Shown: positions 3,453 to 52,049, counted from the first letter of the stretch. The stretch is 64,000 bases of DNA from Tepidisphaeraceae bacterium (GCA_035936155.1 DASYWJ010000034.1:66586-130585); one strand, 5' to 3'. Numbers and translations are program-made. The notes: generated from the sequence alone by a model not told the origin.

Positions 3453-3460
3453 AGCCTCCG

Positions 3461-17669: not shown

Positions 17670-20567
17670 TCACAGGCTGGTCAGTTCCTCGCCCGTGGTG
17701 TTGTCAAGAATGCTGTCCCTGGAGACCTCGTGGAAGAACCAGTCGCGGCCGCCGCCGCCGCGCATGCGATCGGTTGCGCCGTCGTTGCCAACCGTGGCCG
17801 CTGTGAGCACGTTGACGCCATTGAGGCCTCCGCCGTTGCGGAGATTGGCGATGCGGGTCGCGTTGGGATTGGCCGAGCCCCATTCGGCGGAGAGGGAGGC
17901 GAGCGCGTCGTTGTCAGCGTCATGCTGAGTGGTGCCGCCGATGAGGATGTCCTCGCCGTCTCCGCCCTTCAGTTCGTCGCCGCCCAGGCCGCCGATGAGG
18001 ATGTCGTTGCCGGAGCCGCCGGTGAGCGTGTCGAGAGCGGTTCCCCCGAGCAACACATCATTACCGGCGCCGCCGCCGAGCTGGTCCAGGCCGTTCTCAC
18101 CGCGGAGAATGTCATCGGCGCCTCCGCCGCGCAGCGTGTTGTTGCCGTTGCCGCCGTTGAGGATCAGCGGGATCATCACGTCGTCGGTTGCGATGATGCT
18201 GTCGTGGCCGTTCCTGCCGTTGATCGTGATGGAGGTTGTTTCCTCAATGCCGTAGTGGAGCACCAGGCCGTTGAACTCCAGGCCAACCATCTCGACCCCT
18301 TCTTCGTTGACAACCTTGTAGAGCCTCACGACATCGTCGCCATTGGTGAGGTCAACGACGGCGCGGCCCTGGTTGTCAAGGAGGGTCGACTTGAGGTAGA
18401 AGGTGGCGCCTGCCGAGCGCCGGCTGTCGTTGAAGCCGCTCTGCACCTGCTCGTAGGTCACGTTGCCTTCGACATCAATGACGACGTCAATGGGGCCTTC
18501 GGGGTCCTCGCCCCCGGTGGCAGCGCCGTAGCGGGCGGCGAAGGTCGTGCGCTGCTCGAAGGGGTCATTGCTTAAGCCGGCCACGAGAATCTTCTCGTTG
18601 TGCAGCGCTACGCCCAGCGCTGTATCCTGATACTGCCCCGACGCGTCGCCGGGCGCCATGTCGGTCTCCACGTGCGCGCCGCCGTTGAATGATGGATCCA
18701 GCGCCACGCCATTGAAGCGCGCCAGGACAACGTTGTCCGCGCTGGCGCCGGCGACCACCACCGTTCCGCTGCCCGGGTCATACGCCACGGCGTTGTAGCT
18801 CAGCCGGCCGTCGTCGAACTGTGGCAGGTTGTAGGTCTGGGCGTCGATGAGCAGGCCGTCGGCGGAAAACTCGGCGATGGCGCCGCGTGAGCCGAAGAAC
18901 GGGTCAGGCTCCAGCCGGAGGAATACCGGTTGGGAGGACTGGCCGACGGTGACGATTGTGCCGTCGGGTTTGACGGCGACGTCGTTCAGCACGTCGAACG
19001 TCTGCGAACCAAAGTCGAGCACGGCCAAGCCGTTGCCGCCGAAGGCAAAGTCACGGCCGCCGAAGGAGTCGAATCGGGCGATCACGAAATCGTCGCCCAA
19101 GGTGCCGGCCGCGATGATGTTCGCCGGGCCCTCGATCGCCGGCTGCAGCCCAATCGCGGAGCCGCGCGAGCCGCTCGCGAAAACCGTGCTGATGCCCGTC
19201 CCATCGTTGAAGTTCGGATCGAGCGTGCCCGTCGGCGTCAGCCGCATCACGAACATCGCCTGGTTTTCTGAGAAAAGTGCATGCGTGCCCACAATGGCGA
19301 TGATGCCGTCGCCATCGACGAGCACATCGCGCCCCTCGTCATCCTGGGTGTCGCTGAAGATGTCGAACGTGCGGAACCCGAATGCATCGTCCACCGCGCC
19401 GGTGCTATCAAGCCGGGCGACGGCGACATCCAGGTCGTTGCGCTGCGGGGACCTGGACTGCCCCACGATGATGACCCCGTCGCCGCCGTCGATAGCAACG
19501 CCGAACGCCTCATCGTCGCCGGCGGAGCCGATCTCGGCCACGCCGTCACCGGCGAAGGTATTGTCCCACGTGCCGTCGGAATTGTAGCGCGTGGCAACGA
19601 AGTCCTGACTTTCGGTGTCGGGAACGAACTTCGAGCCGACGAGGACCACGCGGCCCTGGGAATCGACGGCGGCCGCGGAGATTGCGGACCAGTCCGTGAC
19701 GGGCCCGGAGGTGAAGCCGCCTTCGTCGCCGTAGGTTGGATCAAGCTGCCCCGGGTCGACGCCAGCCTCCTGGAGCACGGCGTTCAAGGCCGCCGTTTGT
19801 GCCGCGGCGCGGGCGGGCGTGATGTCGATGCCGTCGACCGATGCCAGGTCGAAATCGCCCGCCCCGCCGTCGACGGTATCGACGTCGCTGTGCTTTGCGT
19901 ACAGTGCGTCGTTGCCGCCGCCGCCGAATAGCTTGTCGGAGCCCGTGTTGCCGATCAGTTCATCGCTGCCGTCGTTGCCGGTGATGGAATCATTTCCGCC
20001 CCCGCCGGCCAGGAAGTCCTGCACCGTTCCGCCGCTGCCGATCAGTGTGTCATTGCCGGCGGTGCCGAGCACTTCCTCGGCGTCGCAGTCGTCCCCCTCG
20101 GCGCCGTTGTTGCCGCCATCGGCGACGTTGTCGTTGAGGCTGACGCGGACGGCGGAGGTGCGCGCGGAGTAGCTGATGGTGTCGAGCCCCCCGTCGCCCG
20201 AGAAGTCATCGGCGCCGGCGCCACCCACCATCGTGTCGTTGCCGTTGCCGCCCGAGATGGTGGAGGGGATGCCGCTTCCGATATTGCCGGAGATGAAAAT
20301 GTAATCGTTCCCACCGCCGGCGTTGACGAAGATCTTGTTGAACTGTCCCGCGCTATTGCCGGAGACGAACGTCGTGCTGACTCCGGTGACGCTCACGCGT
20401 CCGTTGGAAAGCCGGTTGACGACGATTTCCTCTGAGCTGGACGAACCGTCGATCCGCAGAACATTTCCCGAGAGGATCGACGCGGTGGTGAGGAACCGGC
20501 GGACTTCGAGCGGCTGGAGTTCGAAGATGCCGGCGATATTGGCGCGCATGCGCTTAGTGGATTTCAT
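17670..20567 (-). CDS. Large RTX-like calcium-binding repeat protein (haemolysin-type GGxGxD repeats plus beta-propeller/delta-60-like repeats)
   Basis: Dozens of GGAGADDF, GGNGND and GGSGNDIL nonapeptide-type repeats at both ends; central DxDGxxD-rich repeats; no N-terminal signal peptide. Confidence 0.75.
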   Translation of the reverse strand: MKSTKRMRANIAGIFELQPLEVRRFLTTASILSGNVLRIDGSSSSEEIVVNRLSNGRVSVTGVSTTFVSGNSAGQFNKIFVNAGGGNDYIFISGNIGSGIPSTISGGNGNDTMVGGAGADDFSGDGGLDTISYSARTSAVRVSLNDNVADGGNNGAEGDDCDAEEVLGTAGNDTLIGSGGTVQDFLAGGGGNDSITGNDGSDELIGNTGSDKLFGGGGNDALYAKHSDVDTVDGGAGDFDLASVDGIDITPARAAAQTAALNAVLQEAGVDPGQLDPTYGDEGGFTSGPVTDWSAISAAAVDSQGRVVLVGSKFVPDTESQDFVATRYNSDGTWDNTFAGDGVAEIGSAGDDEAFGVAIDGGDGVIIVGQSRSPQRNDLDVAVARLDSTGAVDDAFGFRTFDIFSDTQDDEGRDVLVDGDGIIAIVGTHALFSENQAMFVMRLTPTGTLDPNFNDGTGISTVFASGSRGSAIGLQPAIEGPANIIAAGTLGDDFVIARFDSFGGRDFAFGGNGLAVLDFGSQTFDVLNDVAVKPDGTIVTVGQSSQPVFLRLEPDPFFGSRGAIAEFSADGLLIDAQTYNLPQFDDGRLSYNAVAYDPGSGTVVVAGASADNVVLARFNGVALDPSFNGGAHVETDMAPGDASGQYQDTALGVALHNEKILVAGLSNDPFEQRTTFAARYGAATGGEDPEGPIDVVIDVEGNVTYEQVQSGFNDSRRSAGATFYLKSTLLDNQGRAVVDLTNGDDVVRLYKVVNEEGVEMVGLEFNGLVLHYGIEETTSITINGRNGHDSIIATDDVMIPLILNGGNGNNTLRGGGADDILRGENGLDQLGGGAGNDVLLGGTALDTLTGGSGNDILIGGLGGDELKGGDGEDILIGGTTQHDADNDALASLSAEWGSANPNATRIANLRNGGGLNGVNVLTAATVGNDGATDRMRGGGGRDWFFHEVSRDSILDNTTGEELTSL

Positions 20568-20772
20568 GTTGTGCCCTTCCTCCGATGACGAGATGACTGT
20601 GGCGGGGTTGCCCTTCGGGGCAAGACGTTACAAAAACCGATCTGCAGACGCAAGGAATAACAAGAGAATTTGCGCCCAACCAGATGCGAAGCCACGCCTC
20701 ACAATAGCGCAGAATTCCCTACAGTGATATGGCTCACCGTCGAGGCAGTCCGGCGAGGTCGCGGGATCAGCC

Positions 20773-22152
20773 TCAGCGTGTCCTGCGCACCTTCTGATCG
20801 GCCGCGGGCTGGACACCGGCGGACTTTAGCTTGACCGGCTGGGCGGCCTTGACCGTCACGGCCGGCGCCGCCTGCACCTTGGTCGCAGATTTGACAGAAG
20901 CGGGGACCGCTTGTGACGTGGAGTCGGCGAAAATCCGGGCGGTGCCGAGCAGCATTCCTTCGCCGCCGCCGTTGGGCGTGATCGCTTCCGACGTGAAGCT
21001 CACCGTCTCCACTACGCGCTGCCCGCCTTGAAAGACGTCTACGGTCGCGGGCGTCGTCGCGCCTGAGATGTGCTGGGAACCAAAGAAGTAGCCCCCCTCG
21101 GGAAAGGTACCAGGCCAATATACGATTTCGATGCCGCCGTTGGGGCCTCCGCGATGGTCGAAACCAGTGCGCCCGCCATTGGGGATCACATTCAGCCCCC
21201 CTATCGGGTACACCGTGTTGCGGTCGGCGTCCTGCGCGTTGGGTGCGTGCGGGCTGAGGACCGCGAGGTTCAGGTCGGCGTTGTTGTCCCAGCGGAGCAC
21301 GAAGTTGAGTGAACCGGGGAGCACTGGAATGAGTTCGGCGTCGGTCGTGGGGTGCGTGCCGCCGCGGATGACCTTGATGCCCTTCTCGTAATCGTAGCCG
21401 ATCGTCGCGCCGCGCGAGAGGAGATTGGCGATCAATCCTGCTTCCGCGTCGGTCCGCGCCAAGGCCGCGCCGGGGTCGACGAACGCCTCGGCCAGTGATG
21501 CCTCAGCGGCGCTGTCGGCGTTTTCGTTGACCTTCAGCTTGCCCGCGCCCGGTCCGCCGAAGCGGATGCGCTTGCGCGCGTCACGGAATTCCGCCCGGCC
21601 CGTCAGGCTCACGGCCTGCGCGACGAACGGCCGCTGGTCGTACAGGCTCACCTTCGTTCCGCGAACGGCCAGTGTGCTGCTGGGGCTCGAGATCGTCGAC
21701 TCGTGCTCGCGCCCCGCCGCCTCGATGTCGTAGCGCGTCCGGCCGTAGCGCATGCCCAGGTTGGTCTTGAATTTCCCGTTGTCATTGACCGCCTGGAGCA
21801 CCTTGACCGTGCCGAGGCGGTCCAGCGTGATGGTCTGATCCGGTGGGATGGTGAATTGCACGGCGCTGCGCGGGCCGGTGCGGAATTCGGCGTTCTGGTC
21901 GAGCACCATCCCGACAGCGGCCTTCTGCCACGGCTGGCCCTCAGCCGTGCGGACCTGCACAACGCCCTCGACGCCCGTCACGGTCGCCTGGAGCGCTTCG
22001 GCGCTCTCTGCCGGTTGCGTGGCCGGCTGTGAGGGTGTCGCCGCCGGCTGCGTGGGCTGCAATGCCTGGGCAACAGAACCAGCGGCTGCGATAACAGCTA
22101 AGAATATGCCAATGCGGCGTAGCATCTGTCTGCCTCCGACGGTCTTTTTCAC
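20773..22152 (-). CDS. Secreted FecR-domain-like protein
   Basis: Signal peptide (MLRRIGIFLAVIAAAGSVAQA). FecR-like segment VEGVVQVRTAEGQPWQKAAVGMVLDQNAEFRTGPRSAVQFTIPPDQTITL. Lies 10 nt downstream of the lipoprotein gene. Confidence 0.55.
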   Translation of the reverse strand: MKKTVGGRQMLRRIGIFLAVIAAAGSVAQALQPTQPAATPSQPATQPAESAEALQATVTGVEGVVQVRTAEGQPWQKAAVGMVLDQNAEFRTGPRSAVQFTIPPDQTITLDRLGTVKVLQAVNDNGKFKTNLGMRYGRTRYDIEAAGREHESTISSPSSTLAVRGTKVSLYDQRPFVAQAVSLTGRAEFRDARKRIRFGGPGAGKLKVNENADSAAEASLAEAFVDPGAALARTDAEAGLIANLLSRGATIGYDYEKGIKVIRGGTHPTTDAELIPVLPGSLNFVLRWDNNADLNLAVLSPHAPNAQDADRNTVYPIGGLNVIPNGGRTGFDHRGGPNGGIEIVYWPGTFPEGGYFFGSQHISGATTPATVDVFQGGQRVVETVSFTSEAITPNGGGEGMLLGTARIFADSTSQAVPASVKSATKVQAAPAVTVKAAQPVKLKSAGVQPAADQKVRRTR

Positions 22153-22161
22153 GCAGGTCCG

Positions 22162-22761
22162 TCACTGCGGGGAGGGGCCGGTGAGTGCGTCCACCTGGCC
22201 CGGCAGAACCGCCGCCGGGACGTTGGCCGGGTTGCCGCGCTGATAATCTTCGATGCGGCCGATGATCCCGACGAATTCGAACCCGCTGAACGTCTGGTTG
22301 GGGCTACTGGGGGGATACACCCCTGCAAACATCAATTCCCGCACCGCGTACCGCGGCGAGACGCCGAAGATGCGGCTCGTCACGCCTCCGCTCAACCCCG
22401 TCAGCCGCATGATTGCGACCGCCAGCGTGCCTCGACTGACGGCGACATCCCCCGGATCATCGAAGCCCCTGGGCAGCATGTTGCGCGCGCGCAGCTTCTC
22501 GACGCGCGCCTGGTATCCGGCGGCGTCGTCCTCTCCGTCCATGTAGAGCAGCAGCCCATGGAATGAATCGTCGTTGCTCGTGAGGGATTTCTCGGTGAGC
22601 CGGTGCCAGAATTCCATCTGCGCATCGACCTCGCTGCCGCCGAACTGCGCTGTGAGCGAGTCGGGGACGGGGGTGGGGGAGGACTGACAACCTGCTCCGA
22701 GCAACAGGACGATGAGCGCTGCAATCAAGAGTGACGCGGGGAGTCCAGCGTCAAAACGCAT
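22162..22761 (-). CDS. Lipoprotein, hypothetical
   Basis: LLIAALIVLLLGAGCQSS is a signal peptide plus lipobox. The start overlaps the upstream OMP stop by 11 nt. Confidence 0.6.
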   Translation of the reverse strand: MRFDAGLPASLLIAALIVLLLGAGCQSSPTPVPDSLTAQFGGSEVDAQMEFWHRLTEKSLTSNDDSFHGLLLYMDGEDDAAGYQARVEKLRARNMLPRGFDDPGDVAVSRGTLAVAIMRLTGLSGGVTSRIFGVSPRYAVRELMFAGVYPPSSPNQTFSGFEFVGIIGRIEDYQRGNPANVPAAVLPGQVDALTGPSPQ

Positions 22762-24244
22762 AGGTCACCCCCGTATGAATGAAGTGACGGGGCTCATCAG
22801 ATTCAAACACGTCGTCATTCGGGAAGAAAAGCCCGTAGCGAATAGAGAGCGTGACGTCGCTGGTGATCTGCCAGTTGAGAAACACGTCCGGCTCCCAGCC
22901 CAGATAGCGCTCGCCCTCGGAGCCGGGGATCAGCGGCTCGTCGATGACCGCATCCGAATCCGTGCGGTAGAAGACGAACCAGTCGGCGCCGATCTGGATG
23001 CGCGATAAGACCCCGCCGCCGTCGGCGAAGGGAAAGGTGCTGGCCCCGACCCGGAAGCTGGTGAGGTTCGATACCTGCGGCGCGAAAGCGAGCCCGGTGT
23101 TGAGCAGTCCGAAGCCGTTGAACGCGTTGTCATCCGTGCCGGGGGTGTTGCCGCCGAATGTGTCAGATGTGCTGAGCACGCGATCGTCGTCGCCAGACGC
23201 GACGATGACCTCGCCCGTGAAGCGCGACCGGCGGACGTCGGCAAGCAGGTAATCGACGCGAAGGTTCGCGGCCCAGGCGTCGATGTCCTCCTTCGTCTGC
23301 GGAATCGGCTCGATGAAGAGGCTGTCGCCGGAAAAGCTGTTCGACAGGCCGCTGCCGCCCTCATGCACAAGCTCCACGCCATAGAGCCAGCGGTCCCCGA
23401 AGGACCCGGCCGAGCCGACGCCGAGGTAATGGCTGTCGTATTCGAATTCGGTCGAAACCGGCCCCTGCACGAGCGGGTCATCATCGTTGTAGTCGCGCTG
23501 CACGAGCCCGTAGACGTACGGCCGGTGCCGCCCGATCGCCTTGGAAAGCATCGCTCCGTAAAACCCGCGCCGCGTGTTGTGATCAAAGTTTGGCCGCGAG
23601 GCGTCGAAGTCGACCGTCCGCGTGGGCGTGACGCCCGCGATCAGCGACAGACCGATGTCCGTGCGCCACGACAGGTCTACCATCACGCCGTCGATGTCCT
23701 GGCTGAGCACGAGCCCGTTCGCCCAGTAGACGAGGTCGCGGCCGCCCTTGAAGACGACGTTGTAGTCGAGCTGCTCGCCCGCATATGCGGCGCGCGAGCG
23801 GGCGAGGTCGAAGCGGTAGTATCCGGCGTCGAGGTCCGGATCGATGCGCTCGTCGCCGCGGCCGTCGAAGCTGTCGCCGTCGTTGAAGTCGCGCCACCCG
23901 ACGCGCCCGCGCAGGAAGAACTCGTGCGCGCCGTCGATGTTCAACCGGAAATACGGGAACAGCTCGTACTGCCGCAGGACGTGGTTTTCATCGACGTTGT
24001 CGTCGAGCGAGAGGTATCCGAATGTCACGTAAGCCCCGTAGTCGATATACGTCCGCTGCCCCAGCGGCACGTCGGGGTTGATCTCGAGGATGGTGTCGCG
24101 GCGGATCTGCTCGAGTTGGCGCTGAAAGCGCTCCAGGTCCTGCTGCTGCGCATGGGAAATCGACGAGGCAGCGGCGCAGGCACAGAGGGCGAGCACGGCG
24201 AGGGCCAGTCGCCGGCGGCAGCAGCAGCGGTGCGTGGTAGCCAT
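22751..24244 (-). CDS. Outer-membrane beta-barrel protein (hypothetical)
   Basis: The ATG at 24244 gives MATTHRCCCRRRLALAVLALCACAAASSISHAQQ, a signal peptide. The protein is rich in alternating aromatic/Gly beta-strand patterns and ends in ...GVTYAF, the OMP C-terminal aromatic signature. Confidence 0.6.
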   Translation of the reverse strand: MATTHRCCCRRRLALAVLALCACAAASSISHAQQQDLERFQRQLEQIRRDTILEINPDVPLGQRTYIDYGAYVTFGYLSLDDNVDENHVLRQYELFPYFRLNIDGAHEFFLRGRVGWRDFNDGDSFDGRGDERIDPDLDAGYYRFDLARSRAAYAGEQLDYNVVFKGGRDLVYWANGLVLSQDIDGVMVDLSWRTDIGLSLIAGVTPTRTVDFDASRPNFDHNTRRGFYGAMLSKAIGRHRPYVYGLVQRDYNDDDPLVQGPVSTEFEYDSHYLGVGSAGSFGDRWLYGVELVHEGGSGLSNSFSGDSLFIEPIPQTKEDIDAWAANLRVDYLLADVRRSRFTGEVIVASGDDDRVLSTSDTFGGNTPGTDDNAFNGFGLLNTGLAFAPQVSNLTSFRVGASTFPFADGGGVLSRIQIGADWFVFYRTDSDAVIDEPLIPGSEGERYLGWEPDVFLNWQITSDVTLSIRYGLFFPNDDVFESDEPRHFIHTGVTYAF

Positions 24245-24338
24245 TCTTTGGCCGGGCATGCTGCGCGAGCGGACCGGGCTGTGCAAGTTTTTTCGCCAGA
24301 AGGAACAGCAGCACCTGCAAGGGCGCAACGGGAACGGG

Positions 24339-27561: not shown

Positions 27562-28080
27562 CTCGCATTGCATTTCAATCGCGCGAAACGGACTGATTTT
27601 CCTTGACAGAAAGTGAACGCATGGCAGACTATACTCCGTTGGCTGAACCGCCGAAGCTGCGCCTGTTTGATTCATCCATCCTTCATACCCGAACGGCCTC
27701 GGCGGACCGGCAACGCGGAGTGAGAGAATCAGGTTGCGAGCGCCCCAGCAGGAGCGAACGCTCGCATTGGTCGGAGATGTTGTTTCGGGTTCCGCTAAGA
27801 CAACTGGTTGACCGACGCTGCTGAGCGCCTTGCGGTCGCGCACGCTACCTCCCAGAGGTCAGGCGCGTGATGTCGACGGGAGGATCTCCCGGCGCGAGCG
27901 GTCTCATAACCTTTTGAGCGTCTGTCAGGCGGATGGATCAAGGTTGAACTGTGCCGCAGCATTGGTTAAATCAGTGAGTTACGCGTCTCGCGCCGTCCCA
28001 CCTTTCGGCGCGATCGCCCACGACATCCGCCATCGCGCACTTGCCTTCCGACACGCGCGCGACGGCCGCGAGGAGACACC

Positions 28081-30333
28081 ATGGCAGCGAATTTCGCCTG
28101 GGGCATCGACGTCGGCAACCGCGCGTTAAAAGCCATTAAGCTCGTCCGCGACGGCGACGGCGTCCGCATTGAGGACTTCGAGGTCATCGAGCACGAGACC
28201 GTCCTCTCCCAGGCCGGCGACAACCGTGAAGCGATGATCCAGGCCGCCCTGTCCAACCTGGTGGCCCGCCACGCGTTCAAGGGCGGGGTGTGCGGCGTCG
28301 GCGTGAGCGGGCAGTCGAGCTTCGCGCGATTCATCAAGCTCCCGCCGGTCGAGCCAAAGAAGATCCCCGAGATCGTCCGGTTTGAGGCCATCCAGCAGAT
28401 CCCCTTCCCACTCGATGACGTCGAGTGGAGCTACCAGCTGTTCCAGAGCGAGACGAGCCCCGACGTCGAGGTCGGCATCTTCGCGATGCGCAAAGAGCTC
28501 GTGAACCAGCACATCAGCTACTTCATCGACCAGGAGCTGAATGTTCAGGTCGTGCAGATGAACCCCCTGGCCGTCTACAACGCGATGGCGTACGACGGGA
28601 AGATCAAGGGGACGACGATGATCGTCGATCTAGGGGCCGAGAACACCGACCTGATCATTGCCGACGAGGACACGATCTGGATGCGCTCGATCCCGATCGG
28701 CGGGAATAACTTCACCGAAGCGCTGGTCAAGAGCTTCAAGCTGAATTTCCAGAAGGCAGAGGAGCTGAAGCGCAACGCGGCCAGCAGCAAGTACGCGCGG
28801 CAGATCTTTCAGGCGATGCGGCCGATCTTTGCGGACCTGGTGGCAGAGGTACAGCGGTCCATCGGGTTCTACGCATCGGTGCACCGCGACTCGCGGATCA
28901 AGAAGATCATCGCGCTGGGCGGGACGTTCAAGCTCCCGGGGCTGCAGAAGTACCTCCAGCAGAACCTGCAGCTTGACGTCGAGCGCCTGGACCGGCTGGC
29001 AGCGGCCCCGCCGACCGACGGGAAGCTTGCGGCGGCGTTCAACGAAAACGCGCTGGCGATGGTGGGCGCCTACGGGCTGGCGCTGCAGGCGATGGGCGAG
29101 GGCAAGATCAGCAGCTCCCTGCTCCCAGCGCGCATCCGCCGCGAGAAGGCCTGGCAGGAGAAGACCAAGTGGTTCGCCGCCGCCGCGGCGCTGTTCGTCC
29201 TGGGGACGGCCATCCCGTACGGGAGCTGGTTCATCCACAAGATGCAGTACGACAACGAAAGCGCCGCCCGCGCGACCATTGCCAGCGTTCAGGCCACCGC
29301 CGCTGCGCTCGATACGGAGTGGCAGCAGATTCAGGACTCAGGCACTAATGACCGTCAGCGGATCATGAACATCCGCTCCCTGAGCGAGTATCGGGACCTC
29401 TGGCCGCAGCTGCTGGCCGACATCAACTCCGTGATTCCCAAAGGGGACCCCGCCACCCTGAAGCAGGTCCCGCGGAAAGAGCGGGAAGTGGTAAACGTGG
29501 AGAACATCATCACCCGGTATGAGCCGAACATCGGGGTGGCCGTTGCCGACCCGGACTTCAAGCGCTTCGCCGGTGTCGCCGGCTCCGGCGCCATGACGGG
29601 TAGCTTTGCCGCCCCCACCCCCGCGGCCGGGATGGGCATGGACCCGGGGATGATGGAAGACCCGGCGATGATGATGGAAGACCCGGCGATGATGGGGATG
29701 GGGATGGACATGGGGATGTCTCCCCAGCCCGTCGCGCCCGTCCCCGGCGCCGCCCCCGTCGCCGGCGGTGCAAGCACCGGGCACGGGTTCATCATCACGC
29801 TCACGGGCACGACGCCGCACGGGGATCCGGCCTCGCTGCTCACCGACACCGTCATCAAAGATCTGGGTGAGCTGTCGCTGGCCAAGCTGCCGAAGGGCAA
29901 GAAGTATTACATCGCCAAGGCGGAGATTGTCACGACAGCACCGCTGCGGGCCAACCAGGCGCGGATCACCGAGCTGCAGCGGGTGTTTCAGGCCGCCGAG
30001 GAGGCCAGAGGACTCGCTGCTCAACAGCAGCAGCAGCAGCAGCCATACCAGCGGGGACTGTACGATCCGGCGATGCAGCCGGAAATTGACATGGACCCCG
30101 CGATGAACGGGATCGGGGGCGTGGGACAGCCCGCGCTGGGCCCCAATGGCCAGCCTCTGGAAGACCCGCGGCCATTCCGGGATCGGCAGTTCCCCAGCGA
30201 GGACGTGCGGGACGACTCGGAGTTCTCGATCGTCTTCGCGGTCGTGCTCGACCCGAATGAGGCGCCGCCGGCGGATCCCAATGCCGCGCCGCTCGACCCG
30301 GCCGCAGACCCAACGGCTGCCGCAGTGCCGTAA
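28081..30333 (+). CDS. pilM: PilM-like actin-fold ATPase fused to a transmembrane segment and long periplasmic region (PilM-PilN / GspL-like fusion)
   Basis: N-terminal 350 aa align with PilM (GIDVGNRALKAIKL, VRFEAIQQIPFPLDDVEWSYQL, IVDLGAENTDLII). One TM helix (WFAAAAALFVLGTAIPYGSWFI) is followed by a 365-aa tail with a Met-rich DPAMM repeat and polyQ. A strong GAGGAG Shine-Dalgarno is present. Confidence 0.8.
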   Translation: MAANFAWGIDVGNRALKAIKLVRDGDGVRIEDFEVIEHETVLSQAGDNREAMIQAALSNLVARHAFKGGVCGVGVSGQSSFARFIKLPPVEPKKIPEIVRFEAIQQIPFPLDDVEWSYQLFQSETSPDVEVGIFAMRKELVNQHISYFIDQELNVQVVQMNPLAVYNAMAYDGKIKGTTMIVDLGAENTDLIIADEDTIWMRSIPIGGNNFTEALVKSFKLNFQKAEELKRNAASSKYARQIFQAMRPIFADLVAEVQRSIGFYASVHRDSRIKKIIALGGTFKLPGLQKYLQQNLQLDVERLDRLAAAPPTDGKLAAAFNENALAMVGAYGLALQAMGEGKISSSLLPARIRREKAWQEKTKWFAAAAALFVLGTAIPYGSWFIHKMQYDNESAARATIASVQATAAALDTEWQQIQDSGTNDRQRIMNIRSLSEYRDLWPQLLADINSVIPKGDPATLKQVPRKEREVVNVENIITRYEPNIGVAVADPDFKRFAGVAGSGAMTGSFAAPTPAAGMGMDPGMMEDPAMMMEDPAMMGMGMDMGMSPQPVAPVPGAAPVAGGASTGHGFIITLTGTTPHGDPASLLTDTVIKDLGELSLAKLPKGKKYYIAKAEIVTTAPLRANQARITELQRVFQAAEEARGLAAQQQQQQQPYQRGLYDPAMQPEIDMDPAMNGIGGVGQPALGPNGQPLEDPRPFRDRQFPSEDVRDDSEFSIVFAVVLDPNEAPPADPNAAPLDPAADPTAAAVP

Positions 30334-30416
30334 CGACCGTCGCGGCCACCGCGCAGGTCGGTGGGAGAGTGCAGCCCCACGCATCGCGTCCGTGGCTGTC
30401 AGCGAATAGAGGTATC

Positions 30417-31763
30417 ATGGACCTGATCAAGAAGAACATCGTCAGCGTGATTTGCGGCATCGTGGCGATCATCGCCATCGTCGCCTCATTCTTCCCGCTG
30501 GGCAGTTATGTCGAGGATCTGCAGGCGTCGCTTGACAAAAGCAAGGCCGCTTACACCGCCGTCGACACCCTGCGCACCAAGGAGCGCAACCTCCCCATCC
30601 TGAAGCTGGAAGAGACCACTCCCCAGCCGCTGGGCATGTTCCCCAGCAAGGACGTGATCGAGAAGGCTGCCAAGGTCGTGAAGGAAGTTGAGATGCAGAG
30701 TGTGCGGATGCGCAACGCCGCCGTCGCGATGAACAAGCGCGACGTCCTAGTCAAGGGGGTGCTGCCCAACCCCGCCCCGCCTTACGACATCCGCTTCCGC
30801 GAGCGCTACGTCCCGCTCGTCAAGCCCCCCATGGTTGGGACGCAGGTGACGGGCGAGCCGCCCCGGCTGCTGAAAGAGTTCGGGGGCGGCGTGCTCCCGC
30901 AGCCGGCGATGATCGACGCCGAAAAGCTCCGCCGCAGCAACGAGATCATGAACACCAAGGTCATGAAAGACCAGCGCGGGCAGGTGATCAACCAGCCGGA
31001 GATCACCCAGCTGCTCGCGGAGGCCGCGACCCAAGTGCCGCAGCAGATGCGCCAAGCGGTTGCGGAAAAGAGCCTGTTTTACGTCGAGGTGACGGCGCAG
31101 AACGGGGGCCCGACGCTCGACATGGCGCCGCTCATCGACACCGGCGGCCGACCCCCGCCAGCGGCCATCTGGTGGGCGCAGGTCATGCTCTGGATCCAGA
31201 CCGACGTGCTGGCGGCGATCAAGGAAGTGAATACGACCAAGCTGGAAAGTGGTCAGCCGCCCAAGAACCTGATCGAGGCGCCGGTGAAGCGGTTGGCGCG
31301 GATTCAGATCCCGCACGAGAACATGTTCGTGACGGCCGCGGGTCAGGCGCCGCCGGCGGGCGACCCCGCCGCCGCCGCCGACGCCGCTCTGCCCAAGGTC
31401 GTGCAGGCATCCCCGACCGGACGCGTCTCCAACGGAATGTACGACGTCGTGCACTTCCAGATTCACGCCGACATCGAAGTGGAGAAGATCCCCCTGGTGA
31501 TCCGCACGATCGCGCACAACCGGCTGATGAGCGTGTACCACGTCGAGGCCAAGGCCGTCGACGCGACGGCGGCGCAGCTGAACGGGTACTACTACGGAGA
31601 CAAGCCGGTGGCGCAGGTGACGATGTACTGCGAGGCATTGCTGCTGCGGCACTGGACCGTGCCGCTGATGCCCCAGCCGATCAAGCTGCAGCTGCAGATT
31701 CCCGATCCGGCGGCGCCCGGCGCGGCGCCGGCGGAACCGGCGCCCACGGCGCTGGCCCAGTGA
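30417..31763 (+). CDS. Bitopic membrane protein (PilO/GspM-like position), hypothetical
   Basis: The ATG at 30417 with a GAGGT Shine-Dalgarno gives MDLIKKNIVSVICGIVAIIAIVASFF, an N-terminal TM helix, then a 430-aa periplasmic region. Gene order suggests a pilus/T2SS assembly-platform component. Confidence 0.55.
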   Translation: MDLIKKNIVSVICGIVAIIAIVASFFPLGSYVEDLQASLDKSKAAYTAVDTLRTKERNLPILKLEETTPQPLGMFPSKDVIEKAAKVVKEVEMQSVRMRNAAVAMNKRDVLVKGVLPNPAPPYDIRFRERYVPLVKPPMVGTQVTGEPPRLLKEFGGGVLPQPAMIDAEKLRRSNEIMNTKVMKDQRGQVINQPEITQLLAEAATQVPQQMRQAVAEKSLFYVEVTAQNGGPTLDMAPLIDTGGRPPPAAIWWAQVMLWIQTDVLAAIKEVNTTKLESGQPPKNLIEAPVKRLARIQIPHENMFVTAAGQAPPAGDPAAAADAALPKVVQASPTGRVSNGMYDVVHFQIHADIEVEKIPLVIRTIAHNRLMSVYHVEAKAVDATAAQLNGYYYGDKPVAQVTMYCEALLLRHWTVPLMPQPIKLQLQIPDPAAPGAAPAEPAPTALAQ

Positions 31764-31880
31764 CCGGCCGCCGCCGGTAATGCGGAGCGGAAAACGGTCG
31801 CGCTGTTGAGCGGCCGCAACCAAAGCGGAGAGAGCGACGACCGCAAGACGAGCAGGACCTTCAACCAACGGGTTCGCACC

Positions 31881-33836
31881 ATGCAGAAAGTACTGGATCT
31901 CCTCGAGAAACACGTGCAGTGGGTGGCGCTCGGACTGGGCGCCGTGTGGCTGCTGCTCATGACGTGGTCCTATGTCATCACCCCGCCGGCCGAGGTGGAG
32001 ATCGGCAACAGGACGCTGACGGCGGGCAATGTCGATGAGTACACCGTCGAGAACGCCGTGCGCCCGCTGGAAGAGGCGATGAAGCCCAAAGAAGCGCCGC
32101 CGATGGTCGTCGACAACTTCGCCGAACGCTGGCTGGCGCGTATGAGCTGGGAAAACGTCGAGCCGATCCGGACGGCGGGACTGATCAGCAGCCATGGAGC
32201 GATTCCCGATAAGCTGCTCGAGCGTTCGCCGACGCCCGGCATGAGGATCGCGGAGGGGGGCGGGCAACCGCAAGGCGCCCAGGGGGCGCAACCCGTCGAG
32301 AAGGTAGCGACCCTCCCAACGCCGGCCCCCACGCCTGTGGCTTCCGACTGGCGCTTCGGGCGCTCGACGATCCTCAAGCCCCCGCCAATCGTGCCCGTTG
32401 GCCAGCCGCAGCCGCCGACCCCGCCTGTCCCCGAGGAAGTGGACAAGGACTGGATCACGCAATCGTTCAAGGTGAGCCTGCCCGCGATCGCTGAGCTGTT
32501 CAAGAAGCACCAGGTGCCACCCGCGCCGATCGGCATGACGGCGTTCCTCAAGGTCGAGATGGTCCGGCAGGAACTGCTCCCCGATGGCCAATGGGGCCAG
32601 GAGACAACGCTCCAGCCGCTCCCGCCGTTCGATCCCAACGCCATCCGCCCCCCGTGGCCCGCCAACGGAAACATCCACCAGGAAAACGCCTATCTCAACT
32701 GGGCGGTGCAGAATACCGGAGACATCATCCAGCCGGCTTTCTATCAGACGGTGGAGGGCAAGGGTGACATCTGGGAGCGCCCGGGCGAGCCCGCGCCACT
32801 CCCCGGTGGCGGCGCGTTTAACCCGGCGCAGTTCGCCGAAGGGCCGATTCCCCCGAACATTACGCCGGAGCAGCGGAAACAGATCATGGACTACCGGCGC
32901 CAGCAGGCGCTGCTGCGTCGTCAACAGCAGCAGCAGAACCGTCAGCCGCGCACGCCACGCGGGGGCCGCGGCGCGCCGGAAGACCCCGGCATGATGATGG
33001 AGGGGGACTTCGCGCCTATCGATTCGGATCGTCCCAAGTTCCTCCAGGTCCGCCCATACCCCCCGCGCCGTGGCTATCCGCCGGACATGTACGACCCGGC
33101 CATGATGGAAGATCCGGCCATGATGATGGAAGACGAGTTCATGATGGAGGGGATGCAGCCGCAGCAGCAGCAGATCATGGGCGTTGGCGTGCCGGATGTG
33201 GACTACCCCGCGGGGCTGTTCGACCCGGCGACGTGGCACCTCCCCGCGCCCACAGCGCCCGGCGCGCCGCCGCCCGTGAATCCTCGCCCGTCCGAGGTTT
33301 CGATCTGGGCACACGACGACACGGTCCAGCCGGGCAAGACGTATCGCTATAAGGCGCGATACATGATCAAAAACCCGCTGTACCAGCAGCCCGCCGTGGC
33401 GAAGGACGCCGCCGACGCCAAGGTCTTCGCGATTGAGAGCGAGTTCAGCCAGTGGGGCCCGGCCATCGAGGTTCCGCCGCTCACGAACTTCTTCATCGCC
33501 AATGTTCACCAGGGGCGAATCCGCTTCGATGTGTATCGCTGGGACAAGGGCCAGCAGCACCACACGACGGTGACGGTCGGGCCGGGTGACGTGATCGCCG
33601 CCGACGCCGGCGGCGTGGATTTCCGGACGGGTCACACCGTTGTCGACGTCCGCACGGATCTGAAGAGCCGTGATCCGGTGGTCTTCCTGGCCAACGCCGG
33701 GGGCCGGGCTGTGGTCCGCACGGCACGGGGCGACCGGGAGCACCCGGTCAACAAGAAGCTCAAGGAAGTGGTCGACGCCGCCAAAGCCGCGGCAGCTCAA
33801 CAAGCCGCCGCGGCCGGGGGGCTCCCCGTCCGTTAG
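31881..33836 (+). CDS. Bitopic membrane protein with Met-rich/polyQ disordered module and C-terminal beta-rich (PilP-like?) domain
   Basis: The tracked ORF starts with TTG at 31806. The ATG at 31881 gives MQKVLDLLEKHVQWVALGLGAVWLLLMTWSYVI (TM helix). The protein contains YDPAMMEDPAMMMEDEFMMEGMQPQQQQIMG. Confidence 0.55.
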   Translation: MQKVLDLLEKHVQWVALGLGAVWLLLMTWSYVITPPAEVEIGNRTLTAGNVDEYTVENAVRPLEEAMKPKEAPPMVVDNFAERWLARMSWENVEPIRTAGLISSHGAIPDKLLERSPTPGMRIAEGGGQPQGAQGAQPVEKVATLPTPAPTPVASDWRFGRSTILKPPPIVPVGQPQPPTPPVPEEVDKDWITQSFKVSLPAIAELFKKHQVPPAPIGMTAFLKVEMVRQELLPDGQWGQETTLQPLPPFDPNAIRPPWPANGNIHQENAYLNWAVQNTGDIIQPAFYQTVEGKGDIWERPGEPAPLPGGGAFNPAQFAEGPIPPNITPEQRKQIMDYRRQQALLRRQQQQQNRQPRTPRGGRGAPEDPGMMMEGDFAPIDSDRPKFLQVRPYPPRRGYPPDMYDPAMMEDPAMMMEDEFMMEGMQPQQQQIMGVGVPDVDYPAGLFDPATWHLPAPTAPGAPPPVNPRPSEVSIWAHDDTVQPGKTYRYKARYMIKNPLYQQPAVAKDAADAKVFAIESEFSQWGPAIEVPPLTNFFIANVHQGRIRFDVYRWDKGQQHHTTVTVGPGDVIAADAGGVDFRTGHTVVDVRTDLKSRDPVVFLANAGGRAVVRTARGDREHPVNKKLKEVVDAAKAAAAQQAAAAGGLPVR

Positions 33837-33911
33837 AAAGCGACCCGCTGCGCGGGAAGATTCAAACAGCAAGTTCCAAATCCCAAAGAAGCGGCAAGCG
33901 GAAAACGGGAA

Positions 33912-33950
33912 AAGCTCCAAACACCCGAGTTTGGAGCTTTCTCTTTTTAT
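33912..33950 (+). terminator. Rho-independent terminator downstream of the 28.1-33.8 kb operon
   Basis: AAGCTCCAAAC-acccga-GTTTGGAGCTT hairpin followed by TCTCTTTTTAT. Confidence 0.75.
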
Positions 33951-36603: not shown

Positions 36604-36717
36604 TTTCACGCGATATAGACGCGGATTCCCTTTATACTCGTCGCCGCCGGGGCCTTCCGTACAATTCACCGCGTACGATGGCCTTCACCTCACGCATGCA
36701 GCGTGGACGAGGTAGTG

Positions 36718-37563
36718 ATGACCGCCGCTTGGCTGCTCAGCTGGTGGAACCTGATCTTCATCGTGCCCTTCGGGCTCGCGATGGTGTATCTGGGTCTGTA
36801 CACCATGACCGGCCTGGGCGGCGACAACGACGCCGATGCCGATGCCGATGCGGATGCGGAGGCGCATGGCGATCTCGGCCATGATACCGATGCCGATGGG
36901 GATCATGGCGTGCACTCCGCGGAGATGCACCACGGTCATGCCGCAGCGCATGGCCATGAGCACGAGCAGGGACATGCCTCTGCCGCACAGCGCGAGCCGT
37001 CGATGCACGAGACGCTGCTGAACCTGGTGGGCGTCGGCCGGGCGCCGCTCGGAATTGTCCTGATGATTCTCCTGATGAGCTGGGGGTTCATCGGGTTCAG
37101 CATCAACCAGATCGTTCGTCCGATCGTGCCGGCGGACTGGATGGTGGCGCTGGCGTCGCTGCCACTGGCGGCATTTGGCAGCGTGGCCGTCACGGGGGGC
37201 ATCGCGCGGCTCGTCGCCCGGCTGCTCCCGACCACCACGACAACCGCTCATCGCCGCCGCGAGCTGTGCGGCTGCGTTGGTGAAGCGATGTACGAGATCA
37301 CCAGCAACTTCGGGATGGTCGCCGTCCGCGATCGCGACGGCAATCACTACCAGCTGCCCTGCCGCGTTTCCGCCGACCGCGGGCCCATCGCCAAGGGGGA
37401 GCCGGTGTTGCTCGTCCGCTACGACCCGGCGACGAAGATGTATGATGTCATCGCCGACGAACTCGGGCGCGCGGCGCGGGCCCTGAACCAGCCCGCGCCG
37501 GACGCGGCGGCGGTGGAGCGAACCATGGATTCAGCTCAGGAAAGGGACCGGGTGTCACAATGA
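36718..37563 (+). CDS. NfeD-like membrane protein (C-terminal OB-fold) with an Asp/His-rich insertion
   Basis: N-terminal TM helix, then DNDADADADADAEAHGDLGHDTDADGDHGVHSAEMHHGHAAAHGHEHEQGH, more TM helices and an OB-fold-like C-terminus (GMVAVRDRDGNHYQLPCR...GEPVLLVRYD). The stop overlaps the flotillin start as ATGA. An alternative GTG start is at 36703. Confidence 0.7.
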   Translation: MTAAWLLSWWNLIFIVPFGLAMVYLGLYTMTGLGGDNDADADADADAEAHGDLGHDTDADGDHGVHSAEMHHGHAAAHGHEHEQGHASAAQREPSMHETLLNLVGVGRAPLGIVLMILLMSWGFIGFSINQIVRPIVPADWMVALASLPLAAFGSVAVTGGIARLVARLLPTTTTTAHRRRELCGCVGEAMYEITSNFGMVAVRDRDGNHYQLPCRVSADRGPIAKGEPVLLVRYDPATKMYDVIADELGRAARALNQPAPDAAAVERTMDSAQERDRVSQ

Positions 37564-39494
37564 TCTTCGTGCTGTTCCTCATCGGTCTTGCGTTGGCCGT
37601 CGGACCGTACTTCCTTCCGCTCCTCGGGGTGGAGTTGGGGTTCGTGTCGCAGGTGCTGATCTCCGGCGCGGGGCTCGTCGTGCTCGCGCTGGTGGCGCTG
37701 ATCGCCGCCGTCAACCGGCTGTGGCGCAAGGCGTCGGCCAACATGGCGTTCGTACTCACCGGCGGAAAACAGGCGCGGGTGATCGTGGACGGCGGCGCGT
37801 TCGTCATCCCCGTAGTGCACCACGTGACGCCGGTTTCGCTGGAGACGATGCGCCTCAACGTCGAGCGCCGCGGCACCCACGCGCTGATCACCAAGGACAA
37901 CCTGCGCGTCGACCTCTCGGCCGAGTTCTACATCAAGGTGCAGGCCAACCAGGAGGACATCCTCCAGGCCGCTCGCTCGCTGGGCGGGCGCAGCGTCGAG
38001 CCGGGCGCAGTCAGCGAGCTGGTTCAGGAGAAGCTGGTGAGCGCCCTGCGCACCGTCGCGGCGACAAAGGACCTCGTCGAGCTGCACGCCAAGCGCGATG
38101 AGTTCGCCAGCGCCGTGCAGCAGATCGTCACCCACGACCTGGCCAGCAACGGCTTGACGCTGGAATCGGTCACGATCTCCGCCCTCGACCAGACCGATCC
38201 CACGCAGCTCCAGGAGCGCAACGTCTTCGACGCCCAGGGGCTGCGGAAAATCGCCGAGATCACCATGAAGGCGAAGGTGGAGCGCAACGAGATCGAGCAG
38301 GAGAGCTCGCGGATGGTCGTGCAGAAGAACGTCTCCACCCGCAAGCACGTGCTGGACCTGGAGCGCGAGCAGGCGGAGTTCGAGGCCGAGCAGCGCTCGA
38401 AAGTGGCCAATGTGCGAGCTCAGCGCGAGCGCGAGATCGCGGAGTTCAAGCTGGCGCAGGACGAGGCCATCAGCCGGCGCGACATCGAGAAGATGAAGCA
38501 GATCGAGACCGCCGAGGTCGAGCGGACGCTGGCGGTGGAGCAGGCGCAGGTGTCGAAGCAGGTGGCGCTGATCGCGACCATGAAGGAGCAGGAAACGGCG
38601 GAGATCCTCAAGAAGCAGGCGGTGGAAGTGGCCGAGCGGGCGAAGGAAGTGGCCATCGCGCAGAAGGAGCGCGAGCGCGCGGCAGCCCAGGCGCAGGCCC
38701 TGTCGGCCGAGGCGGAGCGCGAAAAGGCCAAGCAGCAGGTTACGACGGTCACGGTCACGAGCGAGGCCGATCGCGAGGCCGCGAAGAAGCTGATCGCTGC
38801 CCAGCAGCAGGTCAAGGAAAAGCAGATTCGCGACCAGACGGAGGCCGACGTGCTCGCGTACATGGCGGTGAAGCAGGCAGAAGCCGAACGCCAGGCTGCC
38901 GAGATGCAGTACGAAGCCCGGCTGCGCCTGGCCGAGGCCGACGCGGCGTCGCAATCGAAGAAGGCCGAGGGCGAACGCGCGATCAAGATGGTCGACGTGA
39001 ACGTCGAGCGCGAGCGCGTCAACGTCGAGCAGGCCCGCGTGGAAGTCGAGCGCGTCAGCCTGAGCAACAAGAGCGAGTTCGAGGAGGCCGCGCTGAAGTT
39101 CGAGCTGGACAAGCTCCGCATCGAGGCCGACAAGCAGGTACGCATCGCCGCCGCACAGGCGCTGGGCAACATGCTCTCCAAGGCCAACATGCAGATTTTC
39201 GGCGATCCAACGACGATGAGCCGCATGAGCGAGCAGTTCATGCGCGCCGCCAGCCTGGGCACCGCCGCGGATGGTTTGATGCGTTCGCTCCCGCCGGACG
39301 CGCAAAACATGCTCGAGCGCGTCGCATCGAGCGTGGGGGTGGCGCTGAAGCCCTCCGACGTGCCGCACGATGGCGCCAACGGCAACGGCGCCTCCGATCC
39401 ACCCGCAGCCTCGCCCGAGCGCAGCGACGACATCGAGCCGACGCCTGAAAGCAAGTCGGTGAAGCGCGTCTCGCGCGAGGACCGCTCAAACTGA
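37560..39494 (+). CDS. Flotillin / SPFH (band-7) family protein with long EA-rich coiled-coil
   Basis: N-terminal TM region, an SPFH domain (ITKDNLRVDLSAEFYIKV...) and about 300 aa of E/A/K/Q coiled-coil typical of flotillins (FloT/YqiK-like). Confidence 0.85.
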   Translation: MIFVLFLIGLALAVGPYFLPLLGVELGFVSQVLISGAGLVVLALVALIAAVNRLWRKASANMAFVLTGGKQARVIVDGGAFVIPVVHHVTPVSLETMRLNVERRGTHALITKDNLRVDLSAEFYIKVQANQEDILQAARSLGGRSVEPGAVSELVQEKLVSALRTVAATKDLVELHAKRDEFASAVQQIVTHDLASNGLTLESVTISALDQTDPTQLQERNVFDAQGLRKIAEITMKAKVERNEIEQESSRMVVQKNVSTRKHVLDLEREQAEFEAEQRSKVANVRAQREREIAEFKLAQDEAISRRDIEKMKQIETAEVERTLAVEQAQVSKQVALIATMKEQETAEILKKQAVEVAERAKEVAIAQKERERAAAQAQALSAEAEREKAKQQVTTVTVTSEADREAAKKLIAAQQQVKEKQIRDQTEADVLAYMAVKQAEAERQAAEMQYEARLRLAEADAASQSKKAEGERAIKMVDVNVERERVNVEQARVEVERVSLSNKSEFEEAALKFELDKLRIEADKQVRIAAAQALGNMLSKANMQIFGDPTTMSRMSEQFMRAASLGTAADGLMRSLPPDAQNMLERVASSVGVALKPSDVPHDGANGNGASDPPAASPERSDDIEPTPESKSVKRVSREDRSN

Positions 39495-46169: not shown

Positions 46170-46583
46170 CTACCGCCCGCTGCCGGCCTTCTCGCGGACC
46201 GGCTGGGTGAGGAAGAAGCGGCCGATGCAGGCTTCGAACTCCTCGCCCTCGTCGGTACGCATTGTGTAGCTGCCTTCCATCGTCCCCCAGGGCGTCTTCA
46301 GCGGACAGAAACTTTGGTATTTGAACGCCTCGCCCGGCTCCAGGCGCGGAGTCTGGCCGACGACCCCGTCGCCATCGACTTCTTCACGTCGGCCGAGGCC
46401 GTCGATGATCAGCCAGCGGCGGCGGAGCAGCTGCACAGGGACGTCGCCGTAGTTGGCGATCACGATGTTGTAGCCGAAGAAGAACTTTCGGTCCTCCGGA
46501 TCGGACTGGTCCGGAAGGAAAAACGCAGTGGCCCCGACGCGAACGCCGCGGGTCGTGGTGTCGGACATCTCGGGGGTGGCCAT
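46170..46583 (-). CDS. apaG: ApaG (DUF525) protein
   Basis: PVQLLRRRWLIIDGLGRREEVDGDGVVGQTPRLEPGEAFKYQSFCPLKTPWGTMEGSYTM aligns closely with E. coli ApaG ([60 protein letters not shown]). Confidence 0.85.
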   Translation of the reverse strand: MATPEMSDTTTRGVRVGATAFFLPDQSDPEDRKFFFGYNIVIANYGDVPVQLLRRRWLIIDGLGRREEVDGDGVVGQTPRLEPGEAFKYQSFCPLKTPWGTMEGSYTMRTDEGEEFEACIGRFFLTQPVREKAGSGR

Positions 46584-46724
46584 GATGCCTATATCATACG
46601 TCGTGCACGCGAGTGAAGCGACGATTGGCAGTAGCGTCCGCACGGAAAAGCCGCGGGCAGCGCGGTTGAGGACGGTGCTGGTACGTGTGCATCTCGCGCG
46701 GGTGCGACTGCGGCGGGCGGAGCT

Positions 46725-47963: not shown

Positions 47964-48029
47964 TATCGTAGGTCCGAGCATGGGCCTCTCGCCCATGTTG
48001 TTCTTCAGTGCACGGGCGAGACGCCAATG

Positions 48030-49739: not shown

Positions 49740-49744
49740 GAGCA

Positions 49745-49817: not shown

Positions 49818-49831
49818 TAACAACTCTTTCC

Positions 49832-50170: not shown

Positions 50171-50179
50171 GGTCAACAC

Positions 50180-50266: not shown

Positions 50267-50270
50267 TCCT

Positions 50271-52010: not shown

Positions 52011-52049
52011 CTGACTTTCCTCGCGATGCCCCAGCACGACCAAGCCCGC

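Follow-up and report, generated by a model that had tools for sequence, protein, structure and literature searches.

Three co-oriented genes at positions 28081–33836 of a 64,000-nucleotide (nt) stretch of DNA, here called the window, form a unit that is fixed across the phylum Planctomycetota, intact and under strong constraint. The window comes from a metagenome-assembled genome (MAG) of the Tepidisphaeraceae (Phycisphaerae) and has a GC content of 65%. We consider it probable that the three-gene module encodes the inner-membrane alignment or assembly-platform subcomplex of a type IV filament machine, the class that includes type IV pili (T4P) and type II secretion systems (T2SS), in a Planctomycetota-specific form related to Amuc_1101 and Amuc_1100 of Akkermansia muciniphila. 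The original prediction, made from the sequence of the window, had described a divergent T4P/T2SS-type platform consisting of a PilM–PilN fusion and a pair of oversized bitopic proteins and lacking its own secretin; this description was supported in all the tests run. Beyond it, the analysis brought out the phylum-wide conservation of the module, its specific relation to Amuc_1101/Amuc_1100, and the essentiality of its probable orthologs in Planctopirus limnophila, in which the annotated secretins are not essential.

All three open reading frames (ORFs) were confirmed on the plus strand (28081–30333, 30417–31763 and 31881–33836), and each showed the high GC content at third codon positions (GC3) of real genes in a window of this composition. 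The annotated starts (ATG at 28081, 30417 and 31881) give proteins of 750, 448 and 651 amino acids (aa). Gene 2 corresponds to NCBI VGR35_06415 and gene 3 to VGR35_06420 (100% identity and coverage), both encoded on a 130-kb contig.

Domain architecture of gene 1

The actin-fold PilM domain that had been recognised at the start of gene 1 was found consistently by curated models and solved structures. Residues 8–336 matched Pfam PilM_2 (PF11104) at 3.6e-39 and 135.1 bits (cutoff 27), the protein exceeded the cutoff of TIGR01175 pilM (147.8 versus 133 bits), and residues 6–340 matched PilM of Myxococcus xanthus (3jc8) at 6e-33. PilM of Thermus thermophilus and Pseudomonas aeruginosa (2ych and 5eou) was matched at ~1e-18 each. 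FtsA was rejected as an identity for gene 1, with 37 bits on TIGR01174 against a cutoff of 176.

The functional residues were followed in an alignment (A4) of 63 sequences, comprising the window protein and 62 orthologs spread over the phylum. The actin/Hsp70-type nucleotide-binding motifs, namely phosphate-1 (D/E10-x-G12...K17), phosphate-2 (D183-x-G185...T189), G207-G208 and the adenosine motif (G280...G287), were kept in 50–63 of the 63 sequences. Judged by these motifs, the PilM domain is ATP-binding, and the loss of nucleotide-binding residues that the original prediction had held up as an objection does not apply, because the motifs are conserved.

In canonical systems, PilN binds PilM through a conserved N-terminal INLLP peptide, and this motif defines PilN. 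A [NSTD]-[LIVM]-[LIVM]-P motif directly followed the PilM domain in every one of the 63 sequences (SLLP in 20, NLLP in 19, other variants elsewhere), and it was followed in turn by a basic stretch and a membrane helix at a kept position. In the window's separate, canonical PilN, the corresponding relative position reads EFLPRW. The membrane crossing and the 365 further residues that had been proposed for gene 1 were borne out, with the hydrophobic helix at residues 364–385. Across the 62 orthologs, the tail contains conserved blocks at approximately residues 426–475, 565–600 and 701–725, separated by variable low-complexity inserts. Because the PilM domain runs straight into a PilN signature and a 365-aa tail, we read gene 1, from its sequence, as a true PilM–PilN fusion whose tail occupies the PilN position without a PilN sequence match. 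Local hhalign comparisons of the gene 1 tail and gene 2 with the window's PilN and PilO were non-significant; this test has little power, because the PilN-versus-PilO control was non-significant too.

Models of genes 2 and 3 and comparison with known systems

Each of the two partner proteins carries a single N-terminal hydrophobic helix, as had been predicted. An AlphaFold2 model of gene 2, built from 25 homologs (predicted local distance difference test [pLDDT] 79, predicted template modelling score [pTM] 0.71), combined this anchor with long helices and an alpha/beta ferredoxin-like core that could be superimposed on solved PilO/Amuc_1100 members. The PilO-type structures matched were 2rjz, 5uvr and 3jc8_O. 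As modelled, gene 2 has the Amuc_1100/PilO fold. Gene 2 had no Pfam or NCBIfam match, alone or across the 25 and 61 family members of genes 2 and 3, and with gene 2 profiles A1 and A5 neither PilO nor 6LAD appeared among PDB sequences at E<=10. An exhaustive profile search collected 2,471 cluster representatives at E<=1e-3, so that the gene 2 family is large yet has no Pfam or NCBIfam model.

The gene 3 model (61 homologs, pLDDT 82) places, in order, the anchor, an alpha/beta domain, a helix, a disordered linker, an all-beta region and a terminal helix. The most conserved motif of the family, WAHDDTVxPGKTYRYxxRY, lies in the all-beta C-terminal region. Neither Pfam nor NCBIfam matched gene 3. 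The PDB sequence searches, run with profiles A1, A2, A4 and A5 of the three gene families, returned nothing. The assignment of gene 3 to the PilP/GspC position is suggestive as far as the model goes, and is reinforced by the gene order and by the anchor–linker–sandwich architecture. The fold check suggested in the original prediction was thus answered for gene 2, which resembles Amuc_1100/PilO, and more equivocally for gene 3, as weighed below.

A Met-rich repeat, DPAMMMEDPAMM, is common to the low-complexity periplasmic parts of gene 1 (29629–29718) and gene 3 (~32980–33160), with up to 43% Met per 30 aa; the DPAMMMED repeats of gene 1 recur in the gene 3 linker, with motif positions 368, 405 and 411. 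Orthologs of gene 1 and of gene 3 in scattered lineages also contain Met-rich stretches, which tend to turn up together in one genome (tally per locus, by hand: both genes 6, gene 1 only 5, gene 3 only 2, neither ~45). Matched flexible linkers and Cu(I)-type Met motifs are two possibilities.

Among known systems, the closest curated family to gene 1 is that of Amuc_1101, which belongs to the 'pili-like' cluster Amuc_1098–Amuc_1102 of A. muciniphila (PMC5332112, PMC10688800). Gene 1 and orthologs representing three further orders scored 189–249 bits on the Amuc_1101 model NF045709 versus 142–157 on TIGR01175, and their matches ran from about model position 4 to 435–464 of 608, past the PilM domain. 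For the canonical PilM of the window the preference was reversed (96 bits on NF045709 versus 128 on TIGR01175), and its match ended at position 350. All these scores lie far below the equivalog cutoff of NF045709 (249 bits at most versus 650), so that gene 1 is related to this family but is not a member. Both organisms belong to the Planctomycetota–Verrucomicrobiota–Chlamydiota (PVC) superphylum, and in the Akkermansia cluster, likewise, a PilM-like protein is followed by N-terminally anchored or signal-bearing unknowns (PMC5332112). The differences are that gene 2 has no sequence similarity to Amuc_1100, that gene 3 matches no NCBIfam model, that the planctomycete proteins are larger than their Akkermansia counterparts, and that the Akkermansia cluster includes the secretin Amuc_1098, whereas the planctomycete module adjoins a secretin in 1 of 80 loci. 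The NF045709 scores together with the modelled Amuc_1100 fold of gene 2 indicate that the module and the Amuc_1101/1100 part of the Akkermansia cluster are versions of one PVC-type platform, in the sense of relatedness rather than membership.

With PilM-PilN-PilO-PilP of the type IVa pilus (T4aP) of M. xanthus, P. aeruginosa and T. thermophilus, the module shares the PilM domain, the PilN motif with its membrane helix, the predicted PilO-type fold of gene 2 and the gene order M-N-O-P. It differs from T4aP in that PilM and PilN are joined in one chain, that its periplasmic parts exceed those of T4aP 2–4-fold in length and fit none of the sequence models for PilN, PilO or PilP, that no pilQ follows, and that the genome has a canonical PilM/N/O/Q set besides. 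PilP, moreover, is anchored as a lipoprotein, whereas gene 3 is anchored by a membrane helix. From the T2SS side, gene 1 resembles GspL in its layout, with a single chain that leads from an actin-like domain in the cytoplasm through one membrane helix into a periplasmic domain, and gene 3 is a bitopic third protein whose closest solved match comes from GspC. The cytoplasmic domain of gene 1, however, is of PilM type with conserved nucleotide-binding motifs. No module protein matched Pfam GspL, GspM or GspC, and there was no gsp operon context.

Conservation, essentiality and the candidate machine

A scan with the gene 3 profile, using one genome per species, yielded 80 loci. The order and strand of genes 1, 2 and 3 were kept in about 65 of them, representing all major planctomycete orders, so the co-occurrence check suggested earlier placed the trio phylum-wide and in the same order. 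Loci came from Tepidisphaerales, Phycisphaerales, Sedimentisphaerales, Pirellulales, Planctomycetaceae and Isosphaeraceae, and cultured carriers include Fontivita pretiosa, Poriferisphaera, Planctomicrobium and strain ZRK34. Middle genes missed by phmmer proved to be gene 2 homologs (hhalign probability 99.6–100%, E 5e-25 and 5e-43). Wherever upstream sequence sufficed, gene 1 and gene 2 orthologs preceded gene 3 on the same strand, with the sole exception of L059, where a 307-aa ORF (9827–10747) is a short paralog with only the C-terminal domain of gene 3 and has no gene 1 or 2 upstream; the domain can thus also stand alone as a paralog. Strong conservation marks the cytoplasmic part of gene 1, which was matched across orders at E values of 1e-80 to 1e-190.

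These data bear on whether the module could be a decayed or redundant pilMNOP duplicate without current function. Such an origin would fit the lack of family matches for genes 2 and 3 and the long low-complexity inserts. It is contradicted by the intact ORFs with gene-like GC3, the near-invariant nucleotide-binding motifs, the 64–92% identity of the gene 1 core (first 500 aa) among the 119 closest non-identical homologs listed, the strict three-gene synteny across the phylum, the domains of genes 2 and 3 that are predicted to fold with high confidence, and probable essentiality. We rejected decay, which the original prediction had named as a way in which it could fail, on the conservation data, and regard it as having virtually no chance of being correct.

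Evidence for essentiality comes from P. limnophila. In the transposon sequencing (Tn-seq) supplementary tables of Rivas-Marin et al. (PMC10632474), Plim_0076, annotated as PilM, is listed as essential together with the two hypothetical genes that follow it, with insertion indices of 0.006, 0.016 and 0.011 for Plim_0076, 77 and 78 compared with ~0.1–0.28 for neighbouring non-essential genes. Their orthologous groups comprise 24, 4 and 8 genomes, all Planctomycetes, and 0 outside (PMC10632474). The text of that paper discusses the Plim_0401–0410 operon, not Plim_0076–78 (PMC10632474), and the latter locus tags occurred in none of the paper texts searched. In our survey, the Planctomycetaceae loci carrying the module were L067, L071–L075, L078 and L079. 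A canonical PilM would fall in an orthologous group of thousands of bacteria. Since the group is limited to Planctomycetes and the module is present in Planctomycetaceae loci, Plim_0076–78 are, on these indirect grounds, very likely the orthologs of genes 1–3.

The same tables grade Plim_0401–0408 and Plim_0410 as essential (two ATPases of the T2SS-E type, one platform protein of the T2SS-F type and six unknowns specific to planctomycetes), PilT of this operon (Plim_0409) as 'unclear', the prepilin peptidase Plim_1841 (peptidase A24) as 'unclear/essential#', and the annotated secretins Plim_0794 and Plim_3839 as 'only non-essential' (PMC10632474). The essentiality of the probable orthologs and the dispensability of the annotated secretins argue against obligate dependence on either secretin alone, and the machine probably has no such dependence; redundancy between Plim_0794 and Plim_3839 could still play a part. 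The most economical reading is that Plim_0076–0078 share one apparatus with Plim_0401–0408/0410, in which the two sets of genes, probably with the prepilin peptidase, would build a single essential T2SS-like or pilus-like machine. The role of the module is probably housekeeping.

In the mechanism that we propose, a PilM ring on the cytoplasmic face would dock a hexameric ATPase and a PilC/GspF platform protein encoded elsewhere, as PilMNOP and GspL-M-C do. The PilN-like tail of gene 1 would pair with the PilO-like gene 2 product to form a periplasmic cage, and gene 3 would reach outward to an outer-membrane partner. The 2–4-fold oversizing and the disordered linkers may let the complex span the unusually wide and variable planctomycete periplasm. 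Candidates for what the machine moves or builds are DUF1559 pseudopilins, which the original prediction had proposed as one of two options, the fibres associated with crateriform structures, and a secretion route for envelope biogenesis. P. limnophila encodes 68 DUF1559 paralogs, of which two are essential (PMC10632474).

Several observations weigh against this platform reading. At the level of fold assignment, PF05137 (PilN) matched none of the 63 gene 1 tails at E<=1, nor did any other Pfam family, and a profile search gave no PDB sequence match for them. Genes 2 and 3 likewise showed no sequence-level tie to PilO, PilP, GspC or Amuc_1100, broad profiles included. For gene 3, the GspC HR domain (3oss_C) ranked first among PDB matches, with FN3 domains scoring nearly equally, and a Foldseek search of the PDB with the gene 3 model turned up only antibody/FN3 tandem matches, none of them significant. 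At the level of the genome, ATPase, platform, pilin and secretin genes were almost never linked to the module: the 80 loci had PilB nearby in 1, PilC in 0 and prepilin-motif ORFs in 6, and a secretin adjoined the module in one, L035. The partner machine is therefore inferred rather than seen. The P. limnophila orthology, finally, rests on annotation, the three-gene pattern and the Planctomycetes-limited orthologous group, and isocitrate dehydrogenase, the downstream neighbour in P. limnophila, was not found beside the module in the Planctomycetaceae loci. The secretin of L035 (8396–11902) is a 1,169-aa TPR-secretin fusion encoded directly 3' of gene 3 and in the same orientation; it matches Pfam Secretin at 4e-21 and, weakly, the Amuc_1098 family model at positions 433–793.

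In a rival reading, which develops the other option of the original prediction, the module would be an alternative alignment subcomplex of the canonical pilus encoded 13–30 kb downstream, using its PilQ, PilB and PilC as a second mode of the same pilus. The window has a single detectable secretin, as the original prediction had stated; the gene 3 domain resembles the secretin-binding HR domain of GspC; and PilB and PilC of the canonical cluster could in principle be common to both. However, that cluster already owns PilM, PilN and PilO, and gene 1 matches its PilM at only E 8e-11, which makes the two distant paralogs rather than products of a recent duplication. The claim of a complete separate pilMNOPQ held for M, N, O and Q, and the ORF in the pilP position had no Pfam PilP match. 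On paper the canonical cluster is self-sufficient, and this, together with the distance between the PilM paralogs, argues against the module as a mere spare part. Furthermore, the module was linked to a T4aP cluster in 0 of 80 loci, and both P. limnophila secretins are dispensable whereas the probable module orthologs are essential, with the caveat of secretin redundancy. We consider a shared pilus quite unlikely.

Somewhat less improbable, but still doubtful in our view, is that a pilus-derived scaffold was exapted for a non-filament envelope job, either membrane tethering ('press-stud' contacts, crateriform structures) or an FtsA-like organiser of FtsZ-less division or budding. PilM and FtsA have a common actin fold, and gene 1 has a weak FtsA match (1.9e-9); planctomycetes are without ftsZ and ftsA (PMC10632474); the module is essential in P. 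limnophila if orthologous and is not linked to filament genes; and crateriform structures, whose components are unknown, join both membranes (PMC5394234, PMC12673574). Against this, the recognisable features are all of pilus type (TIGR01175 far above FtsA, the NLLP motif, and the predicted PilO-like and GspC-like partners), the module is conserved alike in budding Planctomycetia and binary-fission Phycisphaerae, and the co-essential T2SS-type ATPase/platform operon of P. limnophila fits an active filament machine.

We therefore retain the assembly platform of a type IV filament machine as the preferred reading. A broader version, in which the module and a Plim_0401–0410-type operon constitute a type IV filament machine that is essential, independent of a secretin and ancestral to the PVC superphylum, is put forward tentatively and seems to us less likely than the platform assignment itself. 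Were it true, the product could be the basal body of crateriform fibres or a pseudopilus that spans the envelope and is needed for biogenesis of the outer membrane or surface, and Amuc_1100 would be a PilO-class subunit of the verrucomicrobial version.

Planctomycetes combine an unusual envelope and a wide periplasm with fibre-bearing crateriform pits and division without FtsZ, and to our knowledge hardly any of the proteins behind these traits have been identified. A three-gene unit present throughout the phylum that can be placed in a specific machine class, and that is very likely essential in P. limnophila, which serves as a genetic model, would offer a testable entry point. Two large unannotated protein families (~2,500 clusters for gene 2 alone) gain structural context. 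The biomedically prominent Amuc_1100 would be tied to a conserved assembly-platform role, which bears on whether it really is an outer-membrane pilus protein.

Operon surroundings and other features of the window

The intergenic gaps are 83 nt between genes 1 and 2 and 117 nt between genes 2 and 3, and a GAGGAG ribosome-binding site lies immediately ahead of the gene 1 ATG. Of the tight spacing and terminator that had been proposed, the terminator-like hairpin was confirmed, and the gaps make 'tight' a little generous. The module is preceded by a DUF7133/cytochrome c/HEAT gene and then ~520 nt of non-coding DNA, and is followed by genes for an SdhB-like Fe-S protein and ArgG. Gene spacing, terminator and flanking genes together identify an isolated three-gene operon. 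The non-coding region contained no match to the sigma-70 consensus, and no Rfam family was found on the window, this region included. Among the surveyed loci, SdhB was the only conserved neighbour (9 Tepidisphaerales loci), and no other neighbour was broadly conserved. Coordinates are collected in Table 1.

Table 1. Features of the three-gene module, of the canonical pilus cluster and of related loci (window positions unless a locus is named).
Feature	Position	Strand	Basis or remark
Non-coding stretch 5' of gene 1 (promoter/leader region)	27562..28080	+	~520 nt, unusually long; read directly
Gene 1, putative PilM-PilN fusion, 750 aa	28081..30333	+	PilM models, PilN signature, membrane helix
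Gene 1 residues 1-344, cytoplasmic PilM actin-like domain	28081..29112	+	PF11104, TIGR01175, 3jc8
Gene 1 residues 346-349, SLLP, counterpart of PilN INLLP peptide	29116..29127	+	alignment of 63
Gene 1 residues 364-385, transmembrane helix WFAAAAALFVLGTAIPYGSWFI	29170..29235	+	sequence; position kept in A4
Gene 1 residues 386-750, periplasmic tail (365 aa), PilN position	29236..30330	+	conservation profile
Gene 1 residues 517-546, Met-rich repeat GMDPGMMEDPAMMMEDPAMMGMGMDMGM	29629..29718	+	43% Met; lineage-specific insert
Gene 2, bitopic protein, 448 aa, predicted Amuc_1100/PilO-like fold	30417..31763	+	predicted structure
Gene 2 residues 8-28, N-terminal membrane anchor	30438..30500	+	sequence; helix 5-25 in model
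Gene 2 stretch aligned to solved structure	30984..31706	+	secondary structure, pLDDT >85; 160 residues on 6lad_A
Gene 3, bitopic protein, 651 aa, PilP/GspC position	31881..33836	+	
Gene 3 residues 14-33, N-terminal membrane anchor	31920..31979	+	sequence; helix 2-33 in model
Gene 3 residues ~150-300, alpha/beta domain, confidently predicted	32328..32780	+	pLDDT >90, strands and helices
Gene 3 residues ~355-440, disordered Gln/Pro/Met-rich linker	32943..33200	+	pLDDT <50
Gene 3 residues ~470-615, all-beta C-terminal region, candidate GspC-HR/PilP-like beta-sandwich	33288..33725	+	model
Intrinsic-terminator-like hairpin closing the unit	33911..33940	+	12-bp stem, T-rich tail
DUF1559 pseudopilin inside glycoside-hydrolase cluster	9902-10957	-	N-terminal methylation motif
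Canonical type IV pilus-type cluster with embedded signalling genes	46170-63888	-	
PilC	46725-47996	-	
PilB with MshEN domain	48030-49982	-	
HD-GYP/GAF protein	50271-52043	-	
PAS histidine kinase	52525-53991	-	
TPR protein	54078-55265	-	
Secretin	55430-57550	-	
ORF in pilP position	57650-58300	-	matches only Y4YQ_C/CdsD_C/T2SSB C-terminal models
PilO	58285-58839	-	
PilN	58851-59501	-	
PilM (canonical)	59467-60855	-	
Pseudopilin in canonical cluster	60859-61587	-	
Fourth ORF after gene 3, other genomes	L071 10787-12322; L074 9427-10869; L078 10853-12298; L079 10389-12305; L073 545-2488		

Lake Planctomycetaceae MAGs of one clade, some of them mislabelled as Kuenenia or Chitinophaga bins, have a fourth ORF of 480–640 aa without a Pfam match, which follows gene 3 on the same strand and may be a lineage-specific fourth subunit.

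Elsewhere in the window, the glycoside-hydrolase cluster on the minus strand (456–13078) contains GH2 (456–3581), GH10-like (4952–6724) and DUF4838/GH20b (11066–13078) genes and a 968-aa ORF without any Pfam match (6913–9819). Upstream of the DUF7133/cytochrome c gene, the minus-strand region 17670–24328 encodes a 965-aa RTX/DUF5122 beta-propeller protein, a FecR-like anti-sigma protein and an alginate-export-like outer-membrane protein. At 36703–39494, a YqiJ-like membrane protein and a 644-aa SPFH/Band 7 protein overlap by 4 nt and look like an NfeD/flotillin-type pair.

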